Positions 1 to 59,370 of a stretch of DNA of 64,000 nucleotides are shown piece after piece. The notes beneath the pieces are model-generated. The model had not been told where the DNA came from, searched no databases, and saw only the letters and a program-made list of their open reading frames with translations. The translations under genes were made by a program, and so were the position numbers. This DNA is from Eledone cirrhosa. Its lineage: Eukaryota. The stretch is from assembly GCA_964016885.1 (NCBI GenBank), contig OZ024743.1:24986001-25050000 (forward strand), given 5' to 3'. Positions within the stretch are counted from its first letter, which is position 1. Every line of letters begins with the position of its first letter.

Positions 1-3000
1 GTGGTAGTTGTGTGATTATAGGTGTTGTAACTATAGTATTGGTGGTAGTTGTGTGTTTGTAGGTGTTGTAACTATAGTATTGGTGGTAGTGGTGTGATTG
101 TAGGTGTTGTAACTAGTATTGGTGGTAGTTGTGAGGTTATAGGTGTTGTAACTCTAGTATTGGTGGTAGTTGTGAGGTTATAGGTGTTGTAACTATAGTA
201 TTGGTGGTAGTTGTGAGGTTATAGGTGTTGTAACTATAGTATTGGTGGTAGTTGTGTGATTAGGGGTGTTGTGACTATAGTATTGGTAGTAGTTGTGAGG
301 TTATAGGTGTTGTAACTATAGTATTGGTGGTAGTTGTGTGATTAGGGTGTTGTAACTATAGTATTGGTAGTAGTTGTGAGGTTATAGGTGCTGTAACTAT
401 AGTATTAGTCGTAGTTGTGAGGTTATAGATGTTGTAACTATAGTATTAGTCGTAGTTGTGAGGTTATAGATGTTGTAACTATAGTATTAGTGGTAGTTGT
501 GAGGTTATAGGTGTTGTAACTATAGTATTGGTGGTAGTTGTGTGATTAGGGTGTTGTAACTATAGTATTAGTGTTAGTTGTGAGGTTATAGGTGCTGTAA
601 CTATAGTATTGGTGGTAGTTGTGTGATTAGGGTGTTGTAACTATAGTATTGGTAGTAGTTGTGAGGTTATAGGTGTTGTAACTATAGTATTGGTGGTAGT
701 TGTGAGGTTATAGGTGTTGTAACTATAGTATTGGTGGTAGTTGTGTGATTAGGGTGTTGTAACTATAGTATTAGTGGTAGTTCTGAGGTTATAGGTGTTG
801 TAACTATAGTATTGGTGGTAGTTGTGAGGTTATAGGTGTTGTAACTATAGTATTGGTGGTAGTTGTGAGGTTATAGCTGTTGTAACTATGGTATTGGTGG
901 TAGTTGTGAGGTTATAGGTGTTGTAACTATAGTATTGGTGGTAGTTGTGTGATTAGGATGTTGTAACTATAGTATTGGTGGTAGTTGTGTGGTTATAGGT
1001 GTTGTAACTATAGTATTGGTGGTAGTTGTGTGATTGTAGGTGTTGTAACTCTAGTATTGGTGGTAGTTGTGTGGTTGTAGGTGTTGTAACTCTAGTATTG
1101 GTGGTAGTTGTGTGATTGTAGGTGTTGTAACTCTAGTATTGGTGGTAGTTGTGTGATTGTAGGTGTTGTAACTATGGTATTGGTGGTAGTTGTGTGATCG
1201 TAGGTGTTGTAACTATGGTATTGGTGGTAGTTGTGAGGTTATAGGGGTTGTAACTATAGTATTAGTGGTAGTTGTGAGGTTATAGGTGTTGTAACTATAG
1301 TATTGGTGGTAGTTGTGAGGTTATAGGTGTTGTAACTATAGTATTGGTGGTAGTTGTGAGGTTATAGGTGTTGTAACTATAGTATTGGTGGTAGTTGTGA
1401 GGTTATAGGTGTTGTAACTATAGTATTGGTGGTAGTTGTGAGGTTATAGGTGTTGTAACTATAGTATTGGTGGGAGTTGTGAGGTTATAGGTGTTGTAAC
1501 TCTAGTATTGGTGGTAGTTGTGAGGTTATAGGTGTTGTAACTATAGTATTGGTGGTAGTTGTGAGGTTATAGGTGTTGTAACTCTAGTATTGGTGGTAGT
1601 TGTGTGATTGTAGGTGTTGTAACTCTAGTATTAGTGGTAGTTGTGAGGTTATAGGTGTTGTAACTCTAGTATTGGTGGTAGTTGTGTGATTGTAGGTGTT
1701 GTAACTCTAGTATTGGTGGTAGTTGTGTGATTGTAGGTGTTGTAACTATAGTATTGGTGGTAGTTGTGAGGTTATAGGTGTTGTAACTCTAGTATTGGTG
1801 GTAGTTGTGTGATTGTAGGTGTTGCAACTATAGTATTAGTGGTAGTTGTGAGGTTATAGGTGTTGTAACTCTAGTATTGGTGGTAGTTGTGTGATTGTAG
1901 GTGTTGTAACTATAGTATTGGTGGTAGTTGTGAGGTTATAGGTGTTGTAACTCTAGTATTGGTGGTAGTTGTGAGGTTATAGGTGTTGTAACTCTAGTAT
2001 TGGTGGTAGTTGTGAGGTTATAGGTGTTGTAACTATAGTATTGGTGGTAGTTGTGAGGTTATAGGTGTTGTAACTATAGTATTGGTGGTAGTTCTGAGGT
2101 TATAGGTGTTGTAACTCTAGTATTGGTGGTAGTTGTGTGATTGTAGGTGTTGTAACTCTAGTATTGGTGGTAGTTGTGAGGTTATAGGTGTTGTAACTCT
2201 AGTATTGGTGTTAGTTGTGAAGTTATAGGTGTTGTAACTATAGTATTGGTGGTAGTTGTGTGATTGTAGGTGTTGTAACTCTAGTATTGGTGGCAGTTGT
2301 GAGGTTATAGGTGTTGTAACTATAGTATTGGTGGTAGTTGTGTGATTGTAGGTGTTGTAACTATAGTATTGGTGGTAGTTGTGAGGTTATAGGTGTTGTA
2401 ACTCTAGTATTGGTGGTAGTTGTGAGGTTATAGGTGTTGTAACTATAGTATTGGTGGTAGTTGTGTGATTGTAGGTGTTGTAACTCTAGTATTGGTGGCA
2501 GTTGTGAGGTTATAGGTGTTGTAACTATAGTATTGGTGGTAGTTGTGAGGTTATAGGGGTTGTAACTATAGTATTAGTGGTAGTTGTGAGGTTATAGGTG
2601 TTGTAACTATAGTATTGGTGGTAGTTGTGTGATTATAGGTGTTGTAACTATAGTATTGGTGGTAGTTGTGTGTTTGTAGGTGTTGTAACTATAGTATTGG
2701 TGGTAGTGGTGTGATTGTAGGTGTTGTAACTATAGTATTGGTGGTAGTTGTGAGGTTATAGGTGTTGTAACTCTAGTATTGGTGGTAGTTGTGAGGTTAT
2801 AGGTGTTGTAACTCTAGTATTGGGGTTGTTGTGAGGTTATAGGTGTTGTAACTATAGTATTGGTGGTAGTTGTGTGATTGTAGGTGTTGTAACTCTAGTA
2901 TTGGTGGCAGTTGTGAGGTTATAGGTGTTGTAACTATAGTATTGGTGGTAGTTGTGTGATTGTAGGTATTGTAACTCTAGTATTGGTGGTAGTTGTGAGG

Positions 3001-4820
3001 TTATAGGTGTTGTAACTATAGTATTGGTGGTAGTTGTGAGGTTATAGGTGTTGTAACTCTAGTATTGGTGGTAGTTGTGAGGTTATAGGTGTTGTAACTC
3101 TAGTATTGGTGGCAGTTGTGAGGTTATAGGTGTTGTAACTATAGTATTGGTGGTAGTTGTGAGGTTATAGGGGTTGTAACTATAGTATTAGTGGTAGTTG
3201 TGAGGTTATAGGTGTTGTAACTATAGTATTGGTGGTAGTTGTGTGATTATAGGTGTTGTAACTATAGTATTGGTGGTAGTTGTGTGTTTGTAGGTGTTGT
3301 AACTATAGTATTGGTGGTAGTGGTGTGATTGTAGGTGTTGTAACTAGTATTGGTGGTAGTTGTGAGGTTATAGGTGTTGTAACTCTAGTATTGGTGGTAG
3401 TTGTGAGGTTATAGGTGTTGTAACTATAGTATTGGTGGTAGTTGTGAGGTTATAGGTGTTGTAACTATAGTATTGGTGGTAGTTGTGTGATTAGGGGTGT
3501 TGTGACTATAGTATTGGTAGTAGTTGTGAGGTTATAGGTGTTGTAACTATAGTATTGGTGGTAGTTGTGTGATTAGGGTGTTGTAACTATAGTATTGGTA
3601 GTAGTTGTGAGGTTATAGGTGCTGTAACTATAGTATTAGTCGTAGTTGTGAGGTTATAGATGTTGTAACTATAGTATTAGTCGTAGTTGTGAGGTTATAG
3701 ATGTTGTAACTATAGTATTAGTGGTAGTTGTGAGGTTATAGGTGTTGTAACTATAGTATTGGTGGTAGTTGTGTGATTAGGGTGTTGTAACTATAGTATT
3801 AGTGTTAGTTGTGAGGTTATAGGTGCTGTAACTATAGTATTGGTGGTAGTTGTGTGATTAGGGTGTTGTAACTATAGTATTGGTAGTAGTTGTGAGGTTA
3901 TAGGTGTTGTAACTATAGTATTGGTGGTAGTTGTGAGGTTATAGGTGTTGTAACTATAGTATTGGTGGTAGTTGTGTGATTAGGGTGTTGTAACTATAGT
4001 ATTAGTGGTAGTTCTGAGGTTATAGGTGTTGTAACTATAGTATTGGTGGTAGTTGTGAGGTTATAGGTGTTGTAACTATAGTATTGGTGGTAGTTGTGAG
4101 GTTATAGCTGTTGTAACTATGGTATTGGTGGTAGTTGTGAGGTTATAGGTGTTGTAACTATAGTATTGGTGGTAGTTGTGTGATTAGGATGTTGTAACTA
4201 TAGTATTGGTGGTAGTTGTGAGGTTATAGGTGTTGTAACTATAGTATTGGTGGTAGTTGTGAGGTTATAGGTGTTGTAACTATAGTATTGGTGGTAGTTG
4301 TGTGATTAGGGTGTTGTAACTATAGTATTAGTGGTAGTTGTGAGGTTATAGGTGTTGTAACTATAGTATTGGTGGTAGTTGTGAGGTTATAGGTGTTGTA
4401 ACTATAGTATTAGTGGTAGTTGTGATGTTATAGGTGTTGTAACTATAGTATTGATGGTAGTTGTGAGGTTATAGGTGTTGTAACTATAGTATTGGTGGTA
4501 GTTGTAATGTTATAGGTGCTGTAACTATAGTATTGGTGGTAGTTCGTGATGTTATAGGTGTTGTAACTATAGTATTGGTGGTAGTTGTGAGGTTATAGAT
4601 GCTGTAACTATAGTATTGGTGGTAGTTGTGTGATTAGGATTGTTGGAACTATAGTATTAGTATTAGTTGTGAGGTTATAGGTGTTGTAACTATAGTATTG
4701 GTGGTAGTTGTGAGGTTAGGGTGTTGTAACTATAGTATTGGTGGTAGTTGTGAGGTTAGGGTGTTGTAACTATAGTATTGGTGGTAGTTGTGAGGTTATA
4801 GGTGCTGTAACTAGTATTAG
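1..4820. repeat. 41-bp tandem satellite, C-poor on + strand
   Basis: Unit GTATTGGTGGTAGTTGTGAGGTTATAGGTGTTGTAACTATA repeated from the window start to about 4820, with point variants and 39-40 bp variants. Confidence 0.98.
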
Positions 4821-5336
4821 ATGGTGGTAAGATGTAACATATGATACGCAACAATAAAATAAATTGCACAAGCAACATTGTTATAGTATTCTATATATTT
4901 GATTTGATTTTACCTTTGACAATAAGTTATAGTTTGATATATTCAATATCAGCTTTAACTTTATTGAAAACCCTCGCAAAAACTATTCCTGCCGACGTAG
5001 ATTTTACTTACCATTCTTCTGAAGTCGACCAAATATGTAACTTAGGTTAACATGGTCGACTATATCACTCCTTCGAAATTTAAGGTTTTTACCAATGTTA
5101 TAAATCAAGATTTTAACGGAAATTAACAAACGTAGAATTTAAAATATGGACCAAATTTCACTCAGCAAGAAAACAGAACGATTATTTACCACATATGTGT
5201 GTTTGTTTCGTAATGCATCTATCAATGTGTACAAATGTATGAAAAGGGAAAAGTACATTTTTGGTATTCACACCGACATATTTCGTCTTACGGTTTATTT
5301 AATTTAATTATTCTCGACAAAACACAAGGAAAGATG

Positions 5337-29309: not shown

Positions 29310-30050
29310 CTATATTCTGGTATGTTTGTCGCTACCCTCACTGTATCTGTTGCGTATCAGGGTCATTCTGGAGGGAAGGGCAGAATCATAGTGCCCAAAA
29401 AGGTCTCTACTGACATCCTGCTTGTGAAATTTGGTGCATATAGATCCCCCCTCTGTGAGTCTTAGTTTAAAGTCGAGTAGAGAGGGGGATCCAGTGATGT
29501 CTGGGTGCTCATCTTCAAAGTTCACGTGTGCGTCTACGTTTTCGAAGATGTAAATCTTGATGGCTTTTCCTCGTGATGAAGTAGGCATAAAGATATCATC
29601 CACATACCCGGAGAAGAAGGAACAACAGTGACAAGTGGTGAGTGCTAAACACTCCAAATGGTCCATGTATGTGATGGCTAGTTGAGAGACTTGACTCCAT
29701 CGCAAGTGCCGAAATTTCTTTGTAGGCGGAGACTTCAAACTAGAAACAATGTTGCACATAACGATAGCTCATAGATGCCAGAAACTGGGAGCCCAAAGCA
29801 ATTGAGGGCAGAGGGCAGTAGAAGCAATGCTGTTGTCCGTAATTAAGTCGATGGCTAGAGGGAAACTACGTCTAAACTAAATGGATATTCTGTCTAAGTG
29901 TGGTGGGGTTAAGATCTTTTAGTCTGTTGATTACTTCTTGTAAGCTGTCTATGTGCCCGGGAAAAGTGTGAGGGGAGGTTTGGAGAGAAGCCAGGAAACG
30001 ACCGTTTATGCTGGAAACAATGGGTCTTATTTTAAATTGGGCCATGTTTT
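29310..30050 (-). mobile_element. degenerate Penelope-like element reverse transcriptase
   Basis: FKIRPIVSS near 30030, YVDDIF, SLLDFKL, TKFHKQ...HYDSALP: the PLE RT5-7/thumb pattern (YVDD..FLD..YRK..H..S.HP). Confidence 0.8.
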
Positions 30051-39273: not shown

Positions 39274-39397
<124 letters not shown>

Positions 39398-39495
39398 TAT
39401 AGACATAGAATATTCGAAAATATTCTGTATGTTTATAATAAACATTTTGAAGACCTAATCGCTATAGAATAGAATACGTCACGTATTACAATTAG

Positions 39496-39584
39496 ATTCT
39501 CGATAAAAGCAAGGGAAGTAATCTACGCGTTTCATTCTCGTTAGAAATCATCAGGACTACATATCCAGTGCTTTTATCGAGAAT
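39496..39584 (-). ncRNA. type I hammerhead ribozyme, copy 1
   Basis: AUUCUCGAUAAAAGCA-cuggauau-GUAGUC-CUGAUGA-U UUCU AACG AGAA U-GAAA-CGCG-UA-GAUUAC-uucccu-UGCUUUUAUCGAGAAU. Confidence 0.9.
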
Positions 39585-39805
39585 GACACAGCTAGAGACT
39601 TATAGAATACTTAGCTGTGTACAGGAACTGGTTTGAAAGAGCGGTTGCCGGTCCGGCAGAAATTAGAAATTGGAATAAATGCTCTGAAATAGCGATATAT
39701 ATGTGAATATAGACATAGAATATTCGAAAATATTCTGTATGTTTATAATAAACATTTTGAAGACCTAATCGCTATAGAATAGAATACGTCACGTATTACA
39801 ATTAG

Positions 39806-39894
39806 ATTCTCGATAAAAGCAAGGGAAGTAATCTACGCGTTTCATTCTCGTTAGAAATCATCAGGACTACATATCCAGTGCTTTTATCGAGAAT
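39806..39894 (-). ncRNA. type I hammerhead ribozyme, copy 2
   Basis: Identical to copy 1, offset +310. Confidence 0.9.
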
Positions 39895-40115
39895 GACACA
39901 GCTAGAGACTTATAGAATACTTAGCTGTGTACAGGAACTGGTTTGAAAGAGCGGTTGCCGGTCCGGCAGAAATTAGAAATTGGAATAAATGCTCTGAAAT
40001 AGCGATATATATGTGAATATAGACATAGAATATTCGAAAATATTCTGTATGTTTATAATAAACATTTTGAAGACCTAATCGCTATAGAATAGAATACGTC
40101 ACGTATTACAATTAG

Positions 40116-40204
40116 ATTCTCGATAAAAGCAAGGGAAGTAATCTACGCGTTTCATTCTCGTTAGAAATCATCAGGACTACATATCCAGTGCTTTTATCGA
40201 GAAT
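40116..40204 (-). ncRNA. type I hammerhead ribozyme, copy 3
   Basis: Identical to copy 1, offset +620. Confidence 0.9.
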
Positions 40205-40422
40205 GACACAGCTAGAGACTTATAGAATACTTAGCTGTGTACAGGAACTGGTTTGAAAGAGCGGTTGCCGGTCCGGCAGAAATTAGAAATTGGAATAAAT
40301 GCTCTGAAATAGCGATATATATGTGCATATAGACATAGAATATTCGAAAATATTCTGTATGTTTATAATAAACATTTTGAAGACCTAATCGCTATAGAAT
40401 AGAATACGTCACGTATTACAAT

Positions 40423-40488
<66 letters not shown>

Positions 40489-43239: not shown

Positions 43240-43427
43240 CTGTGCTGTGTGTATGCCGCTTTTTTATCACCCTCCCACCATAATATCGTGGACGCCCTTT
43301 CTCATATATTTCATAACTATTGTTACCTCGCCAATAATTCCTCAATATATTCCCTTGACTTCGCTCCGCCCAACACTGCTGCATTGCCCAACCCTCATTG
43401 CATTTATTTGCCTCATTCTGATTTGGC

Positions 43428-45545
43428 CTCTACTTGCCATTCTCCCACCCCCTTTTCCCTCCACTTGCCATTCTCCCACCCCCTTCCCCTCCACTTGCCA
43501 TTCTCCCACCCCCTTTCCCTCTACTTGCCATTCTCCCACCCCCTTCCCCTCTACTTGCCATTCTCCCACCCCCTTTCCCTCTACTTGCCATTCTCCCACC
43601 CCCTTTCCCTCTACTTGCCATTCTGCCACCCCCTTTCCCTCTACTTGCCATTCTCCTACCCCCTTTCCCTCTACTTGCCATTCTCCCACCCCCTTTCCCT
43701 CTACTTGCCATTCTCCCACCCCCTTTCCCTCTACTTGCCATTCTCCCACCCCCTTTCCCTCTACTTGCCATTCTCCCACCCCCTTTCCCTCTACTTGCCA
43801 TTCTCCCACCCCCTTTCCCTCTACTTGCCATTCTGCCACCCCCTTTCCCTCTACTTGCCATTCTCCCACCCCCTTTCCCTCTACTTGCCATTCTCCCACC
43901 ACTTTCCCTCTACTTGCCATTCTCCCACCCCCTTTCCCTCTACTTGCCATTCTCCCACCCCCTTTCCCTCTACTTGCCATTCTCCCACCCCCTTTCCCTC
44001 TACTTGCCATTCTCCCACCCCCTTTCCCTCTACTTGCCATTCTCCCACCCCCTTTCCCTCTCGTTGCCATTCTCCCACCACTTTCCCTCTACTTGCCATT
44101 CTCCCACCCCCTTTCCCTCTACTTGCCATTCTCCCACCCCCTTTCCCTCTACTTGCCATTCTCCCACCACTTTCCCTCTACTTGCCATTCTCCCACCCCC
44201 TTTCCCTCTACTTGCCATTCTCCCACCCCCTTCCCCTCTACTTGCCATTCTCCCACCCCCTTTCCCTCTACTTGCCATTCTCCCACCCCCTTTCCCTCTA
44301 CTTGCCATTCTGCCACCCCCTTTCCCTCTACTTGCCATTCTCCTACCCCCTTTCCCTCTACTTGCCATTCTCCCACCCCCTTTCCCTCTACTTGCCATTC
44401 TCCCACCCCCTTTCCCTCTACTTGCCATTCTCCCACCCCCTTTCCCTCTACTTGCCATTCTCCCACCCCCTTTCCCTCTACTTGCCATTCTCCCACCCCC
44501 TTTCCCCCTACTTGCCATTCTCCCACCACTTTCCCTCTACTTACTATTCTCCCACCCCCTTTCCCTCTACTTGCCATTCTCCCACCCCCTTTCCCTCTAC
44601 TTGCCATTCTCCCACCCCCTTTCCCTCTACTTGCCATTCTCCCACCCCCTTTCCCTCTACTTGCCATTCTCCCACCACTTTCCCTCTACTTGCCATTCTC
44701 CCACCCCCTTTCCCTCTACTTGCCATTCTCCCACCCCCTTTCCCTCTACTTGCCATTCTCCCACCACTTTCCCTCTACTTGCCATTCTCCCACCCCCTTT
44801 CCCTCTACTTGCCATTCTCCCACCCCCTTCCCCTCTACTTGCCATTCTCCCACCCCCTTTCCCTCTACTTGCCATTCTCCCACCCCCTTTCCCTCTACTT
44901 GCCATTCTGCCACCCCCTTTCCCTCTACTTGCCATTCTCCTACCCCCTTTCCCTCTACTTGCCATTCTCCTACCCCCTTTCCCTCTACTTGCCATTCTCC
45001 CACCCCCTTTCCCCCTACTTGCCATTCTCCCACCACTTTCCCTCTACTTACTATTCTCCCACCCCTTTCCCTCTACTTGCCATTCTCCCACCCCCTTTCC
45101 CTCTACTTGCCATTCTCCCACCCCCTTTCCCTCTACTTGCCATTCTCCCACCCCCTTTCCCTCTACTTGCCATTCTCCCACCACTTTCCCTCTACTTGCC
45201 ATTCTCCCACCCCCTTTCCCTCTACTTGCCATTCTCCCACCCCCTTTCCCTCTACTTGCCATTCTCCCACCCCCTTTCCCTCTACTTGCCATTCTCCCAC
45301 CCCCTTTCCCTCTACTTGCCATTCTCCCACCACTTTCCCTCTACTTGCCATTCTCCCACCCCCTTTCCCTCTACTTGCCATTCTCCCACCCCCTTTCCCT
45401 CTACTTGCCATTCTCCCACCCCCTTTCCCTCTACTTGCCATTCTCCCACCCCCTTTCCCTCTACTTGCCATTCTCCCACCCCCTTTCCCTCTACTTGCCA
45501 TTCTCCCACCCCTTTCCCTCTACTTGCCATTCTCCCACCCCTTTC
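43428..45545. repeat. 30-bp polypyrimidine/polypurine minisatellite
   Basis: Unit TTCTCCCACCCCCTTTCCCTCTACTTGCCA, about 70 copies with recurring 29-bp variants. Confidence 0.98.
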
Positions 45546-46585: not shown

Positions 46586-46930
46586 ATACGATATTAATAA
46601 ATGGAAACTATATTTATAAAACCATATTTATTTCATTATACATATTTTAGGGATACCAAATTAAATTATGGTATGCCTTCATCAGACAAAATACAATATA
46701 TAACAATTTTACAAATAAGCTTTGACGTACCCTTTTAAAATGCAACCATGATGGCTTCCAAAAATAATGGCTGCATTTTAAAAGGGTACGTCAAAGTTTA
46801 TTTGTAAAACTATTATATATTGTATTTTGTCTGATGAAGGCATACCATAATTTAATTTGGTATCCCTGAAATATGTATAATGAAATAAATATGGTTTTAT
46901 AAATATAGTTTCCATTTATTAATATCGTAT
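46586..46930. mobile_element. palindromic element, ~163-bp arms, hammerhead in each arm
   Basis: Arms 46586-46749 and 46767-46930 are near-perfect inverted copies. Confidence 0.9.
46823..46887 (+). ncRNA. type I hammerhead ribozyme with long stem II
   Basis: UAUUUUGU-CUGAUGA-AGG C AUACCA uaauuuaauu UGGUAU C CCU-GAAA-UAUGUA-UA-AUGAAAUA; the left-arm copy has GAAA changed to AAAA. Confidence 0.75.
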
Positions 46931-51104: not shown

Positions 51105-51256
<152 letters not shown>

Positions 51257-51260
51257 TATA

Positions 51261-51339
<79 letters not shown>

Positions 51340-51601
51340 TAAAATATGTCTATAGAATCACAAGATAAAATATATACCATTTCCTCTCCCAATTAGCATA
51401 ATTAACTATATAAAAAATCGAATAGACCAGGCTATAAGAATGAGGCTTCTATGAAGAAATCTCCAACAAATAACCAAAACTAGCCCTTCGCGTCGGCCGT
51501 AACGGAATATTTATCGATTATTTCGACAGCGTAATCGCTCAGATACAGTCAACTAAACAGAATTAGGTGTAAAATAAACTAGGAGAAAATAGAATATATT
51601 T

Positions 51602-51694
51602 AAATACCTCTACCATGGTTTCATCCGCATTTTGAGATTTCCAATAATTATGTAATTATTATATAACTCGAGCATCGGATTCAGCAGGAGATTT
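51602..51694 (-). ncRNA. hammerhead ribozyme with very long stem II (core CUGCUGA in this copy)
   Basis: AAAUCUC-CUGCUGA-AUCCG...CGGAU-GAAA-CCAUGG-UA-GAGGUAUUU. Confidence 0.65.
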
Positions 51695-52467
51695 GCTCTG
51701 ATCTAGACACTGAATTTTCCAAAGTGATCGCGCCAAGAATTCATTCAAAATGACCAAGAATCGTGACGTAGTCGCGGTCAGGTTGGAAGGGGTGTGTTAG
51801 TTGCTTACGACTGGTGGCTTTTTTGCTAGAAAGCACAGCACAATACAGCCAAATTTGTATCTCAACCTAATGGGAGATTATTACATATAAAAGTTTACAT
51901 ATATATATATACATATATATACATATACGTGTTTTGCAACGGGTCACTTTGTGGCTCAATGAAAATTTAATAAATTAAACAATCAGAGCTATATATCATA
52001 AAACATGTCTATAGAATCACAAGATAAAATATATACCATTTCCTCTCCCAATTAGCATAATTAACTACATAAAAAATCGAATAGACCAGGCTATAAGAAT
52101 GAGGCTTCTATAAAGAAATCTCCAACAAATAACCGAAACTAGCCCTTCGCGTCGGCCGCAACGGAATTATATATAGCTCTGATTGTTTAATTTATTAAAT
52201 TTTCATTGAGCCACAAAGTGAACCGTTGCAAAACACGTATATGTATATATATGTATATATATATGTAAACTTTTATATGTAATAATCTCCCATTAGGTTG
52301 AGATACAAATTTGGCTGTATTGTGCTGTGCTTTCTAGCAAAAAAGCAACCAGTCGTAAGCAACTACCACACCCTTCCAACCTGACCGCGACTACGTCACG
52401 ATTCTTGGCCATTTTGAATGAATTCTTGGCGCGATCACTTTAGAAAATTTAGTGTCTAGATCAGAGC

Positions 52468-52560
52468 AAATCTCCTGATGAAACCGATGCTCGAGTTATA
52501 TAATTATTACATAATTATTGGAAATCTCAAAATGCTGATGAAACCATGGTAGAGGTATTT
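52468..52560 (+). ncRNA. hammerhead ribozyme with very long stem II (intact CUGAUGA, two stem II mismatches)
   Basis: AAAUCUC-CUGAUGA-AACCG...CUGAU-GAAA-CCAUGG-UA-GAGGUAUUU. Confidence 0.7.
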
Positions 52561-53029
52561 AAATATATTATATTTTCTCCTAGTTTATTTTACACCTAAT
52601 TCTGTTTAGTTGACTGTATCTGGGCGATTACGCTGTCGAAATATTCGATAAATATTCCGTTGCGGCCGACGCGAAGGGCTAGCTTCGGTTATTTGTTGGA
52701 GATTTCTTCATAGAAGCCTCATTCTTATAGCCTGGTCTATTCGATTTTTTATATAGTTAATTATGCTAATTGGGAGAGGAAATGGTATATATTTTATCTT
52801 GTGATTCTATAGACATGTTTTATGATATATAGCTCTGATTGTTTAATTTATTAAATTTTCATTGAACCACAAAGTGACCCGTTGCAAAACACGTATATGT
52901 ATATATATATGTAAACTTTTATATATATATTTTTTTTTTTTAGGAACGATCGACTTTCGTCAAATCGGACCGAGGGAACAATGTTTCCGTTGGTCTTTCC
53001 AATTGCTAATACTATCTATCGGTCGCAAC

Positions 53030-53574: not shown

Positions 53575-54950
53575 GACATATTCGGGTGTAGGAGGTTTAT
53601 CCGGAATTTCTTGGAGGAATTTGAACAAAGACGTTTTGAATTTTATGGGATTTGTTTCTGTTTTATGTGTTTTGGTGTTATGTTAAGGGGAGTGGGACCT
53701 ATTGAGGTGAAATACTTGTGCCATAATGTTGTTGAGATGCGAATTTGATTTTTGTTGTGAGCGGATAGCATGAGGCACAAGTCCTACGTGTATTTTAAAG
53801 ATGATGCCAACATGATTTGGGTAATGCTGATTTAATATTGTCCACATCTTGCAGATAATTTAGCTCTCACGGCGCTATTGGAGAGAATAGAGTTTATGCT
53901 TTTCTAGTAAAGGCCTGTCATGCTGTCTATCTTCTTTGTTATTGACCTTTGAGGTGCCTCAATTTTTATAATATTTTTGAATTTTATGGGGAGATCTCAA
54001 TGGACAACAGTGTTCAAGGTGGGGCCGGGTAAATGTTGAGAAGAGAAGGTTGATGGTGTGGATATGTCTCGACTGGAAAGTTCTGTGAATCCAGGAACAT
54101 ATTCTGCGGGCCATGTCAATTTTTTTAAATCTATATGAGTTAGCCCAGCTTAGGTCGTTATCAACAATTGCTCTCAGGTATCTAATGTTGTTGGATACCA
54201 CAAGGGTTTCACTCGAGGGAAGAGAATATGATAGTTTCAGTGCATTCTCGTTTCCAAAGTGGATTAGTTCGAACTTATTCTCGTTCAGAAGCATATTTTC
54301 TTTTTGTTTTTTCTCGCTTATTGGATAACAGCAAGTAGTTTGAGTGAAGGCATACCTGAGATCTCCCACTCCATTCATGGCATTCTGGAGCTTGGAATCA
54401 TCTGTTGCTGTGTTTGATGACGTTGATAATATCATTGATATAAATAATGAAAAGAAGCGGACCAACACAGTTCCTTGGACGTAAATACTGACTCTGGTTG
54501 GGCTTGATTGTACTCCTTCGACTAGATTTATTTGTCAGGAGACACTTGTATTACAATAACTTTCTAGAGACACCTATTTTGGATAGCTTTTTCATTAGGG
54601 TGTTGTGATCAACCCTGCCTTGCTGAAATCAAGGTATGTGACACAAGAGATGGAGCTCTCTCCCAAAGGTCTAAACATGTCATTAAAGTGATGCAGGAGC
54701 TGCGTTAGGCAACCCCTTCCATTACGAAATCTATGCTGGCTGGAGTTTAGCTGATTGTTGCTTTAAAAAAAGTGAGTTATTTATGATCTAACCATCTTCT
54801 CAAACACCTTAAATGATATGAGAGGTGAATGAGATCGGACGGTAATTCACTGCAAGGGACTTGATTCCCGTTTTGAAAACTGGGACAACAGATTGAGACA
54901 GAGGGTGTTTAGGTATATAGCCAGCGTCCTGTGAGTTCCTCCACAGATCA
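53575..54950 (-). mobile_element. degenerate CR1-like LINE RT, older copy of the 58.2-59.1 kb family
   Basis: NYRPISFTSHI, DDSKLQ, NMLLNENKFELIHFG, RPHLEHCCPL. Confidence 0.85.
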
Positions 54951-58193: not shown

Positions 58194-59141
58194 CTTTGAA
58201 TAACTTTGAAATGTTTTGGCCAGTATTGGCCCAGGCCATGTCTAACTTAATAGCACCACCTGGCGAAGTCTTTCAATTCAGGATTTGGGCACCATGGTCC
58301 ATTCGAGAAGAGAATTACTGTTTGCGGAGACATATCCGGGTGTGGGTGGTTTGTCCGGGATTACTTGGAGGAATTTGTCCAAAGACTTCTTGAATTTTGT
58401 GTGGTCAGTTTCTGTTTTGACGTGTCCTGGTGTGATGTTGAAGAGAGCAGGGCCGATTGAGGTGAAATAATTGTGCCGTATTGTTGTTATGAGTTGCGAT
58501 TTAGATTTTTGAATGGGACGGATAGCACGGGGCCCAAGCCTTGGGTGTATCTTGAAGGCGATGCCAACATCATTTGGGCAGTGATGATGGAACATTTTCC
58601 ACATCATGCAGATAATATAACGCTCACGGCGACGTTGGAGTGAGTAAAGTTTCAGGTTTTCCAATCGACCCCAGTAGTCAAGGTCTGACATGCCATCTAT
58701 CTTTTTCGTGATTGCCCTTTGAGGAGCTTCAAGTTTCATGATACTTTGTTTCGTGTGGGGAGACCACAGTGGACAACAGTATTCAAGGTGTGGTCGGGCG
58801 AAAGTAGAGAAGAGAAGGATAATGGTGCGGGAATCTCTCGACTGGAAGGTTCTGAGGATCCAGGAACACATTCTGCGGGCCATGTCAACTTTGCTGCTTA
58901 TATGCGTGGTCCAGCTTATGTTGCTGTCCACGGTTACTCCCAAGTCTCTGATGTTGTTAGATGCCACGAGAGTTTCCCCGGAGGGAAGGGAGTACGGGAG
59001 TTTCAGAGCATCCTCTTTTCCAAAGTGGATCAGTTCGAATTTGTCTTCGTTCAGTAACATGTTGTTCTTTTCTGCCCATTGGGTAACAGCCAGTAGGTCT
59101 GACTGAAGGCTTATCCGGTCATCCACGCCATTGATGACCTT
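58191..59141 (-). mobile_element. 5'-truncated young CR1-like LINE ending in (TTCAAAGTTA)2 next to (TA)n
   Basis: Uninterrupted RT C-terminal ORF, short 3' UTR and a short tandem-repeat tail. Confidence 0.88.
58278..59126 (-). CDS. LINE ORF2 C-terminal part (RT thumb region), truncated
   Basis: LQSDL..V.QWA..N.M.LN.DK, RDLGVTVDS, RPHLEYCCPLWSP, LEAPQR, LYSLQRRRER, FKKSLDKFL. Confidence 0.85.
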   Translation of the reverse strand: MDDRISLQSDLLAVTQWAEKNNMLLNEDKFELIHFGKEDALKLPYSLPSGETLVASNNIRDLGVTVDSNISWTTHISSKVDMARRMCSWILRTFQSRDSRTIILLFSTFARPHLEYCCPLWSPHTKQSIMKLEAPQRAITKKIDGMSDLDYWGRLENLKLYSLQRRRERYIICMMWKMFHHHCPNDVGIAFKIHPRLGPRAIRPIQKSKSQLITTIRHNYFTSIGPALFNITPGHVKTETDHTKFKKSLDKFLQVIPDKPPTPGYVSANSNSLLEWTMVPKS

Positions 59142-59162
59142 TTGGAGCTTATATATATTTTC

Positions 59163-59370
59163 GGAAAATATTCAAGACTCCGACGGCACAGAGCTCAAGC
59201 CGTTTCGACGGCTATTTCTGGACGGCTATTTCAGTCCAGAAATAGCCGTCGAAACGGCTTGAGCTCTGCCGTCGGGGTCTTGAATATTTTCCTATTACCC
59301 ACACTACTACCCAAAGTATCGAGTACTCTGGTGCGCTATGGTCCATCTGCTTCCTTACCACACTTCCTTC

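Follow-up and report, generated by a model that had tools for sequence, protein, structure and literature searches.

Head-to-head insertions of a hammerhead-bearing, non-coding repeat of Eledone cirrhosa pair two fixed 3' ends in (TA)n: a probable non-autonomous Penelope-like element

The DNA analysed here, a stretch of 64,000 nucleotides (the window) from the 3.0 Gb, microsatellite-rich genome of Eledone cirrhosa, contains at 51332-52924 two head-to-head arms of a 657-bp non-coding repeat, lying within a split (TA)n run. We consider it probable that this repeat is a non-autonomous Penelope-like element (PLE), or non-LTR retrozyme, inserting in (TA)n, and that its head-to-head insertions, which pair two different 3' ends, A and B, are twin-primed from one break, likely by a PLE reverse transcriptase/GIY-YIG enzyme acting in trans. 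Elements of this class are already known; what is new, and can be tested, is the strictness of the A+B pairing. Across the family the head-to-head form is the product of one event.

A sequence-only reading of the window had proposed a 659-bp unit in partial-tandem plus inverted form, its halves joined head-to-head. That form is borne out by two direct repeats (51331-51508 versus 51990-52167, spaced by 659 nt, 97% identity; 52166-52257 versus 52822-52913, spaced by 656, 95%), by three inverted segments, 461, 279 and 136 nt long and 95-97% identical, and by mapping of both arms, each of which is, as had been claimed, slightly longer than one unit (Table 1). The figure of 659 holds for the spacing in the window, while the unit of the family is 657 nt, numbered here from window position 52166. 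The left arm is truncated at its 5' end, at unit position ~490, and the 3' ends of both arms point outward into the halves of the split TA run. The halves are differently permuted, as the reading had it, but not as free products of circle copying: the 3' ends fall at two fixed positions, and variation is confined to the 5' ends. The window arms differ from each other by 2.7%, against 5.5% from the median other arm, and have 6 non-consensus alleles in common. Elsewhere in the window lie two minisatellites (41-bp x118 at 1-4829 and 30-bp x71 at 43427-45545) and minus-strand frames at 58278-59171 and 53959-54534 resembling 3' LINE reverse transcriptase fragments, the former without a Pfam match.

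Table 1. Features of the head-to-head element and of a PLE fragment in the window (window positions)
Feature	Position	Strand	Remarks
Degenerate PLE reverse-transcriptase fragment	29310-29768	-	~58% identity to young autonomous PLE
(TA)n target, left part	51172..51337	.	83 TA units; final 6-7 bases common to left-arm site A
Left arm	51332..52167	-	~837 nt, 1.27 units, ribozyme-sense; 3' end is site A, facing TA run
Left-arm type I hammerhead	51606..51692	-	core lesion A6>C at 51684
5'-to-5' (head-to-head) junction	52166..52168	.	2-nt overlap
Right arm	52166..52924	+	~760 nt, 1.15 units, ribozyme-sense; passes through site A, 3' end is site B
Right-arm type I hammerhead	52470..52556	+	stem I 5 bp, 52470-52474/52552-52556; core 52475-52481; GAAA 52540; stem III palindromic ACCAUGGU; predicted cleavage after 52551
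Right-arm stem II region	52482-52539	+	5 bp, 6x6 internal loop, distal hairpin; lesions 52483, 52536
Most conserved block	52735..52795	+	directly upstream of site A; 90-97% invariant over three subfamilies 79-92% alike
Site A (ATATATA)	52825..52831	+	read through in right arm; commonest 3' end of the family
'Tail' between sites A and B	52832..52924	+	ends at site B (CTTT|TATA, 52919-52924); ~105 nt in family
(TA)n target, right remnant	52920..52929	.	(TA)5

The repeat forms a family that is both young and dispersed. From 3,699 first-look candidates obtained with a 546-nt query, 40 were scored and yielded 50 matches at 92-100%, and 35 copies average 1.8% from their majority sequence. Exact patterns, whose counts are lower bounds, found at least 1,026 site-A ends running into TA, at least 182 site-B ends and at least 178 intact ribozymes, the reversed-pattern control being 0 for each; a search with the 91 nt preceding end A had returned no matches, very common words probably having been skipped, and it was the exact pattern that then gave the 1,026. 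The locus is therefore neither a chance arrangement nor the unique local inverted duplication that had been named as a refuting case, and the exact matches to the intact ribozyme answer the other such case, a genomic consensus lacking the core or stem II. Two older subfamilies, S3 (29 loci) and S4 (11 loci), with 79% and 81% identity to the window type, keep both the unit length (657 and 664 nt) and the two end sites. Conservation within the unit is best in the stretches flanking site A and worst in the distal hairpin of the ribozyme, and the most conserved block may be an RT-binding element. The only ORF of at least 120 aa inside the element is one frame made mostly of flanking microsatellite, which makes the unit non-coding; its GC content is 0.347, below the limit of 45-50% for non-LTR retrozymes. 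The tail was considered as the relic start of an ORF, a proposal left unsupported by stops in every frame. Parts of the unit also occur in a few contigs of a second organism. Contigs from runs X1, X4 and X5 indicate presence only.

The 3' ends of the arms cluster at the two fixed sites A and B, ~105 nt apart, and the 5' ends are variable truncations. A TA repeat follows 92/96 A ends and 48/58 B ends. TA homology is not an absolute need: in L257 end A abuts (CA)n, and L198 has its end within (TG)n, at a TG-rich site. Read depth climbs more than 10-fold from the ribozyme to end A, as 5' truncation would give, and among solo arms away from the locus edge (n=74) 53 end at A, 17 at B and 4 elsewhere. 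We think it scarcely credible that this is a DNA-level element (a MITE, a fold-back or a Helitron-like element) or a satellite with a chance hammerhead: the long inverted arms with TA flanks do recall such an element, but one end is fixed and the other variable, most family loci are not inverted, coverage falls toward the 5' side, the ribozyme stems covary, and terminal inverted repeats common to all copies are absent.

The pairing of ends was scored in 150 loci, picked by similarity, exact A ends or intact ribozymes, which merged to 108 distinct loci. These contain 46 head-to-head pairs, of which 38 are A+B, none is A+A or B+B, and 8 have one non-standard end; if ends were chosen independently, such pairing would have a probability of 3e-17 (4e-12 with p=0.5). 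Given that loci from the similarity search are a biased sample, the first 30 exact ends of each kind were also taken in coordinate order. Of the 30 A ends, 13 adjoin an inverted partner, and in each of the 13 cases the partner ends at B. The 30 B ends represent 27 events (loci L269-272 being four copies of one duplicated locus, and six events being already among the 108), and 25 of these have a partner, which ends at A in 24 cases, at a non-standard site in one and at B in none; two of the 24 A partners are ~10-nt stubs, read from the flank. The duplicated locus (L269-L272, G000:C1:303203318-303213184) is a head-to-head insertion with a ~109-nt insert, tandemly duplicated at least 4 times. B thus serves mostly as a second end, and some arms scored as 'solo B' may have hidden stubs. 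Subfamily S3 adds six pairs of the A+B type and one in which an end is non-standard.

It is very improbable that these pairs stem from two separate insertions into the same TA run, or from an inverted duplication that arose locally once an element had inserted. A single TA run can indeed accumulate unrelated elements (L138), the right arm in the window starts at a TA-like site, and the two window arms are as far apart as noted above. Both are refuted at the family level by the counts: A+A is absent though A is the commoner solo end, nearly every B event adjoins a partner arm, the gaps at junctions are centred on -2 to +1, subfamily variants are common to sister arms, and a local duplication would produce equal ends. 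Sister arms were closer to each other than to the median other arm in 31/32 pairs (those with at least 80 shared sites).

The inverted arm might also come from a single cDNA folding back, or from the reverse transcriptase switching to its own product, with the far end annealing to the TA target; we judge this improbable. A few pairs (L053, L186) have identical 5' positions around a gap, as folding back would give, and in a length test of the 38 A+B pairs 21 are compatible with fold-back from B and 6 from A. The remaining 11 fit neither direction, the window pair (A 837, B 762) included by the same length rule; the compatible pairs would require both directions, and pairs whose arms each hold sequence missing from the other contradict fold-back as a general route. 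Since fold-back fails for 11/38 pairs, we infer that both outward ends need a sense template primed from the target, that is, twin priming. The B arm reaches or passes A in 41/41 pairs of the first set; the stronger rule that B arms always pass A is broken by L250, whose B arm stops inside the tail. It follows that the enzyme primed at B must in most cases either displace the strand begun at A or work on a second RNA.

An autonomous PLE, a candidate source of the enzyme, exists in the same genome. With part of the reverse-transcriptase fragment in the window (29310-29690) as query, we retrieved a young PLE family with a 3,127-bp unit and an 860-aa ORF carrying Pfam RVT_1, a C-terminal GIY-YIG domain and a Cys-rich linker; many of its copies (L139-L157, e.g. 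G000:C4:233388238-233396549), which occur both as tandems and inverted, are 99-100% identical and have kept the 860-aa ORF intact. Twenty loci were hand-picked for their long frames; in these the ends of the PLE lie at two sites separated by 44 nt and lead into (TA)n, the first end being preceded at ~120 nt by a minimal hammerhead-like motif. Of its 14 head-to-head pairs, 11 are A+B, one is A with another end, and two run off the locus edge, so that all 11/11 with standard sites are A+B. A second TA-ending PLE family was seen in fragments.

Sequence common to the 657-nt unit and the 3,127-bp PLE was not detected (best E 4.4), nor did the unit match the second family's fragment in L027, and comparison of structure around A-B in unit and PLE gave no clear match. 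A search for a parent PLE through the short-stem-II pattern returned 17 matches, none with an ORF of at least 400 aa within 1.5 kb, and when the loci of the family were searched by tblastn with the PLE protein, the sole matches were neighbours across TA runs (L023/L027, L223). Locus L138, considered as a unit joined to an ORF, is in fact two insertions in one TA run. Because no autonomous element sharing sequence with the unit was found in these comparisons, the partner enzyme, likely of the PLE type, is assigned by shared behaviour only. The original classification as a retrozyme-like or non-autonomous PLE family is supported, with core and stem II intact in the family.

We propose that a PLE-like enzyme acting in trans would cut both strands of a TA run, and that cDNA synthesis would start from one DNA end at RNA site A and from the other at site B, ~105 nt downstream. 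Both cDNAs would be extended toward the 5' side of the RNA, through the ribozyme site and often beyond one full unit, and would then be joined 5'-to-5' by end joining with a few shared bases; priming from one end only, mostly at A, would give a plain truncated copy. The weakest step is the template: it may be a circular monomer, produced by hammerhead cleavage (the ribozyme probably dimerizing through its palindromic stem III) followed by ligation, or alternatively a multimer that stays uncleaved.

The closest biochemical comparison is the Poseidon element PAc of Anolis, studied in vitro (Frangieh et al. 2024, PMC11167929), in which, according to that account, the PLE protein, a predicted dimer, cuts and extends both strands at AT-rich targets, and reverse transcription starts at two internal RNA sites that define the tail. 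The hammerhead of PAc lies upstream of the start sites and is described there as dispensable for insertion in vitro (PMC11167929). The start site is reported not to differ between top and bottom strands, which counts against asymmetric A+B priming, and the start sites are without target homology, whereas sites A and B of the 657-nt unit carry UAUA (PMC11167929). The available text of PMC11167929 gives no account of how ends pair on a single molecule.

The other component of the proposal is the hammerhead. A long-stem-II ribozyme with different lesions in each copy had been described from the window; 58 nt do separate the core halves (5+48+5, as described), and the lesions are a core change in the left copy and two stem II changes in the right (Table 1). 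The family repeat carries an intact predicted type I hammerhead: all 12 core positions (CUGANGA / GAAA / UH) are intact in 59/73 core-spanning arms, which were not chosen by core pattern. Over 106 instances in five groups, stem I has 5-6 bp, stem II 4-5 bp and stem III 2-3 palindromic bp (ACCAUGGU); the 6x6 internal loop is kept in all five groups, and the hairpin beyond it varies. Pairing of stems I and II is maintained across the groups, with stem II pair 3 changed from C-G to U-A in S3 and stem I varying among paired forms, from which the hammerhead appears to be under structural constraint; the internal loop may make a tertiary contact with stem I. In folding calculations the active fold lies 3.0-9.7 kcal/mol above the local minimum, depending on the group (3.6 in S3), and the first pair of stem II is A-C in 25/45 instances of the window's subfamily. 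The cost of 9.3 kcal/mol in the latter subfamily, together with its frequent A-C pair, argues against easy activity as a monomer, and a short palindromic stem III is described in PMC4209133 as requiring a dimer. Tandems with two consecutive intact ribozymes occur (e.g. L019, L138, L206/L207), rarely, and none at the window locus.

Rfam gave 0 matches at gathering score in the window, and a hammerhead was absent among 94 weak matches in three loci, which the long stem II may explain. A U4 snRNA-like copy with a degenerate 3' end scored above the Rfam gathering score at L219:742-864. Other hammerhead elements were noticed as well. Window positions 46586-46930 hold a head-to-head inverted type I hammerhead element (345 nt, 94%; core at 46831 on the plus strand, damaged copy at 46685 on the minus), unrelated in sequence to the 657-nt unit. 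Another, a 310-bp tandem (x3.4, 99%) in a TA run at 39385-40424, has a hammerhead-like core on the minus strand of each unit (39554, 39864, 40174) and is probably a third retrozyme-like family. Loci L092, L096/L097/L106/L131, L102 and L104 contain more hammerhead families with similar stem III and different stem II, several as inverted pairs.

Whether the template was a circle or a multimer bears on how far the ribozyme takes part. Sixty of 165 arms exceed one unit and 3/165 exceed two, so that long rolling-circle products are rare; since the autonomous PLE too makes arms longer than one unit, such arms alone do not prove a circle. Successive passes within an arm differ at 141/3650 sites (3.9%) and sister arms at 212/6011 (3.5%; p 0.40, 17 loci), a low pass-to-pass difference that fits a ligated monomer circle and also a young, homogeneous multimer. 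Folded as a circle, the unit has only slightly more structure than its shuffled versions (z -1.7, 40 of them); this fold is unremarkable, unlike the highly self-paired circles described in PMC7229834. From these comparisons of sequence we would put a circular template at somewhat better than even.

Twin priming from a linear, uncleaved multimer (or from two RNAs on an asymmetric dimer), with no circle and with the hammerhead a passenger or serving another step, strikes us as rather unlikely. In its favour the cleavage site is read through by 108/167 arms, only 2 arms starting there (an enrichment of 5' ends at that site, 2/165, was unconvincing), the active hammerhead fold is disfavoured in the window's subfamily, the autonomous PLE behaves alike in arm length, and unprocessed RNA is the main substrate in the account of PMC11167929. 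Against it, though not decisively, linear arrays would be expected to shorten under repeated 5' truncation, but unit length has held at 657-664 nt in subfamilies 79-92% alike; passes within an arm are no more different than sister arms, as if one monomer had been copied twice; and the ribozyme is structurally constrained. Returning to the circle, we tentatively suggest, as a possibility short of a probable account, that twin priming is obligately asymmetric: a PLE dimer would hold one ribozyme-made circle across the break, its subunits starting at A and B, so that the same circle is copied twice and the tail is the footprint of the dimer.

In L1 twin priming, synthesis is primed from the two target ends and yields an inverted 5' segment with a microhomology joint; the second site is variable and the arms scarcely overlap. 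In the 657-nt family, by comparison, both sites are fixed and the same sequence is copied twice by the arms. Like the EN+ PLEs described by Craig et al. (2021, PMC8557442), the family displays 5' truncation, partial tandems, an inverted 5'-truncated neighbour and a microsatellite bias that includes (TA)n; in that description the tail is often at one end only, and there are non-autonomous forms such as MRC1. It differs from the EN+ PLEs presented there in lacking an ORF and in its tail of ~105 nt versus 30-40. Beyond the qualitative remark on a tail at one end, we found no published A+B pairing or twin priming in PLEs in the literature available to us, and older Penelope papers or repeat databases may contain it.

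Metazoan non-LTR retrozymes, as characterized by Cervera and de la Pena (2020, PMC7229834) and in the preprint of Li, Clavereau and Pollet (2026, 10.64898/2026.07.22.740005), have been proposed to be non-autonomous PLE derivatives, and they resemble the present family in their non-coding, GC-poor (35%) unit, single type I hammerhead, short palindromic stem III and partial tandems; the family lengths given in the preprint, 51-972 bp, include 657. The present family, known here from DNA alone, departs from the described members by its dispersed, often inverted insertions, mostly of fewer than 2 units and with defined PLE-type ends, by its 105-nt tail, and by an extended stem II, whose 58-nt region contains a 6x6 loop that is conserved; the searches revealed no parent pLTR. 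A similar family could be listed in the supplements of 10.64898/2026.07.22.740005. The main text of PMC13282606, as available, does not mention hammerheads.

The origin of tandem and inverted PLE insertions is described as an open question in PMC8557442. That a parasite RNA and an autonomous PLE in the same genome both follow the A+B rule yields a sharp prediction for the in vitro system already available, namely that the two ends of one cut use different start sites, and the family supplies a 657-nt template with a long-stem-II hammerhead for testing it. The family ties animal retrozymes to PLE enzymes by mechanism, and not by co-occurrence or pLTR homology. If obligately asymmetric priming on a ribozyme-made circle is true, the family would be a direct genomic record of a retrozyme circle used by PLE machinery with which it shares no sequence.
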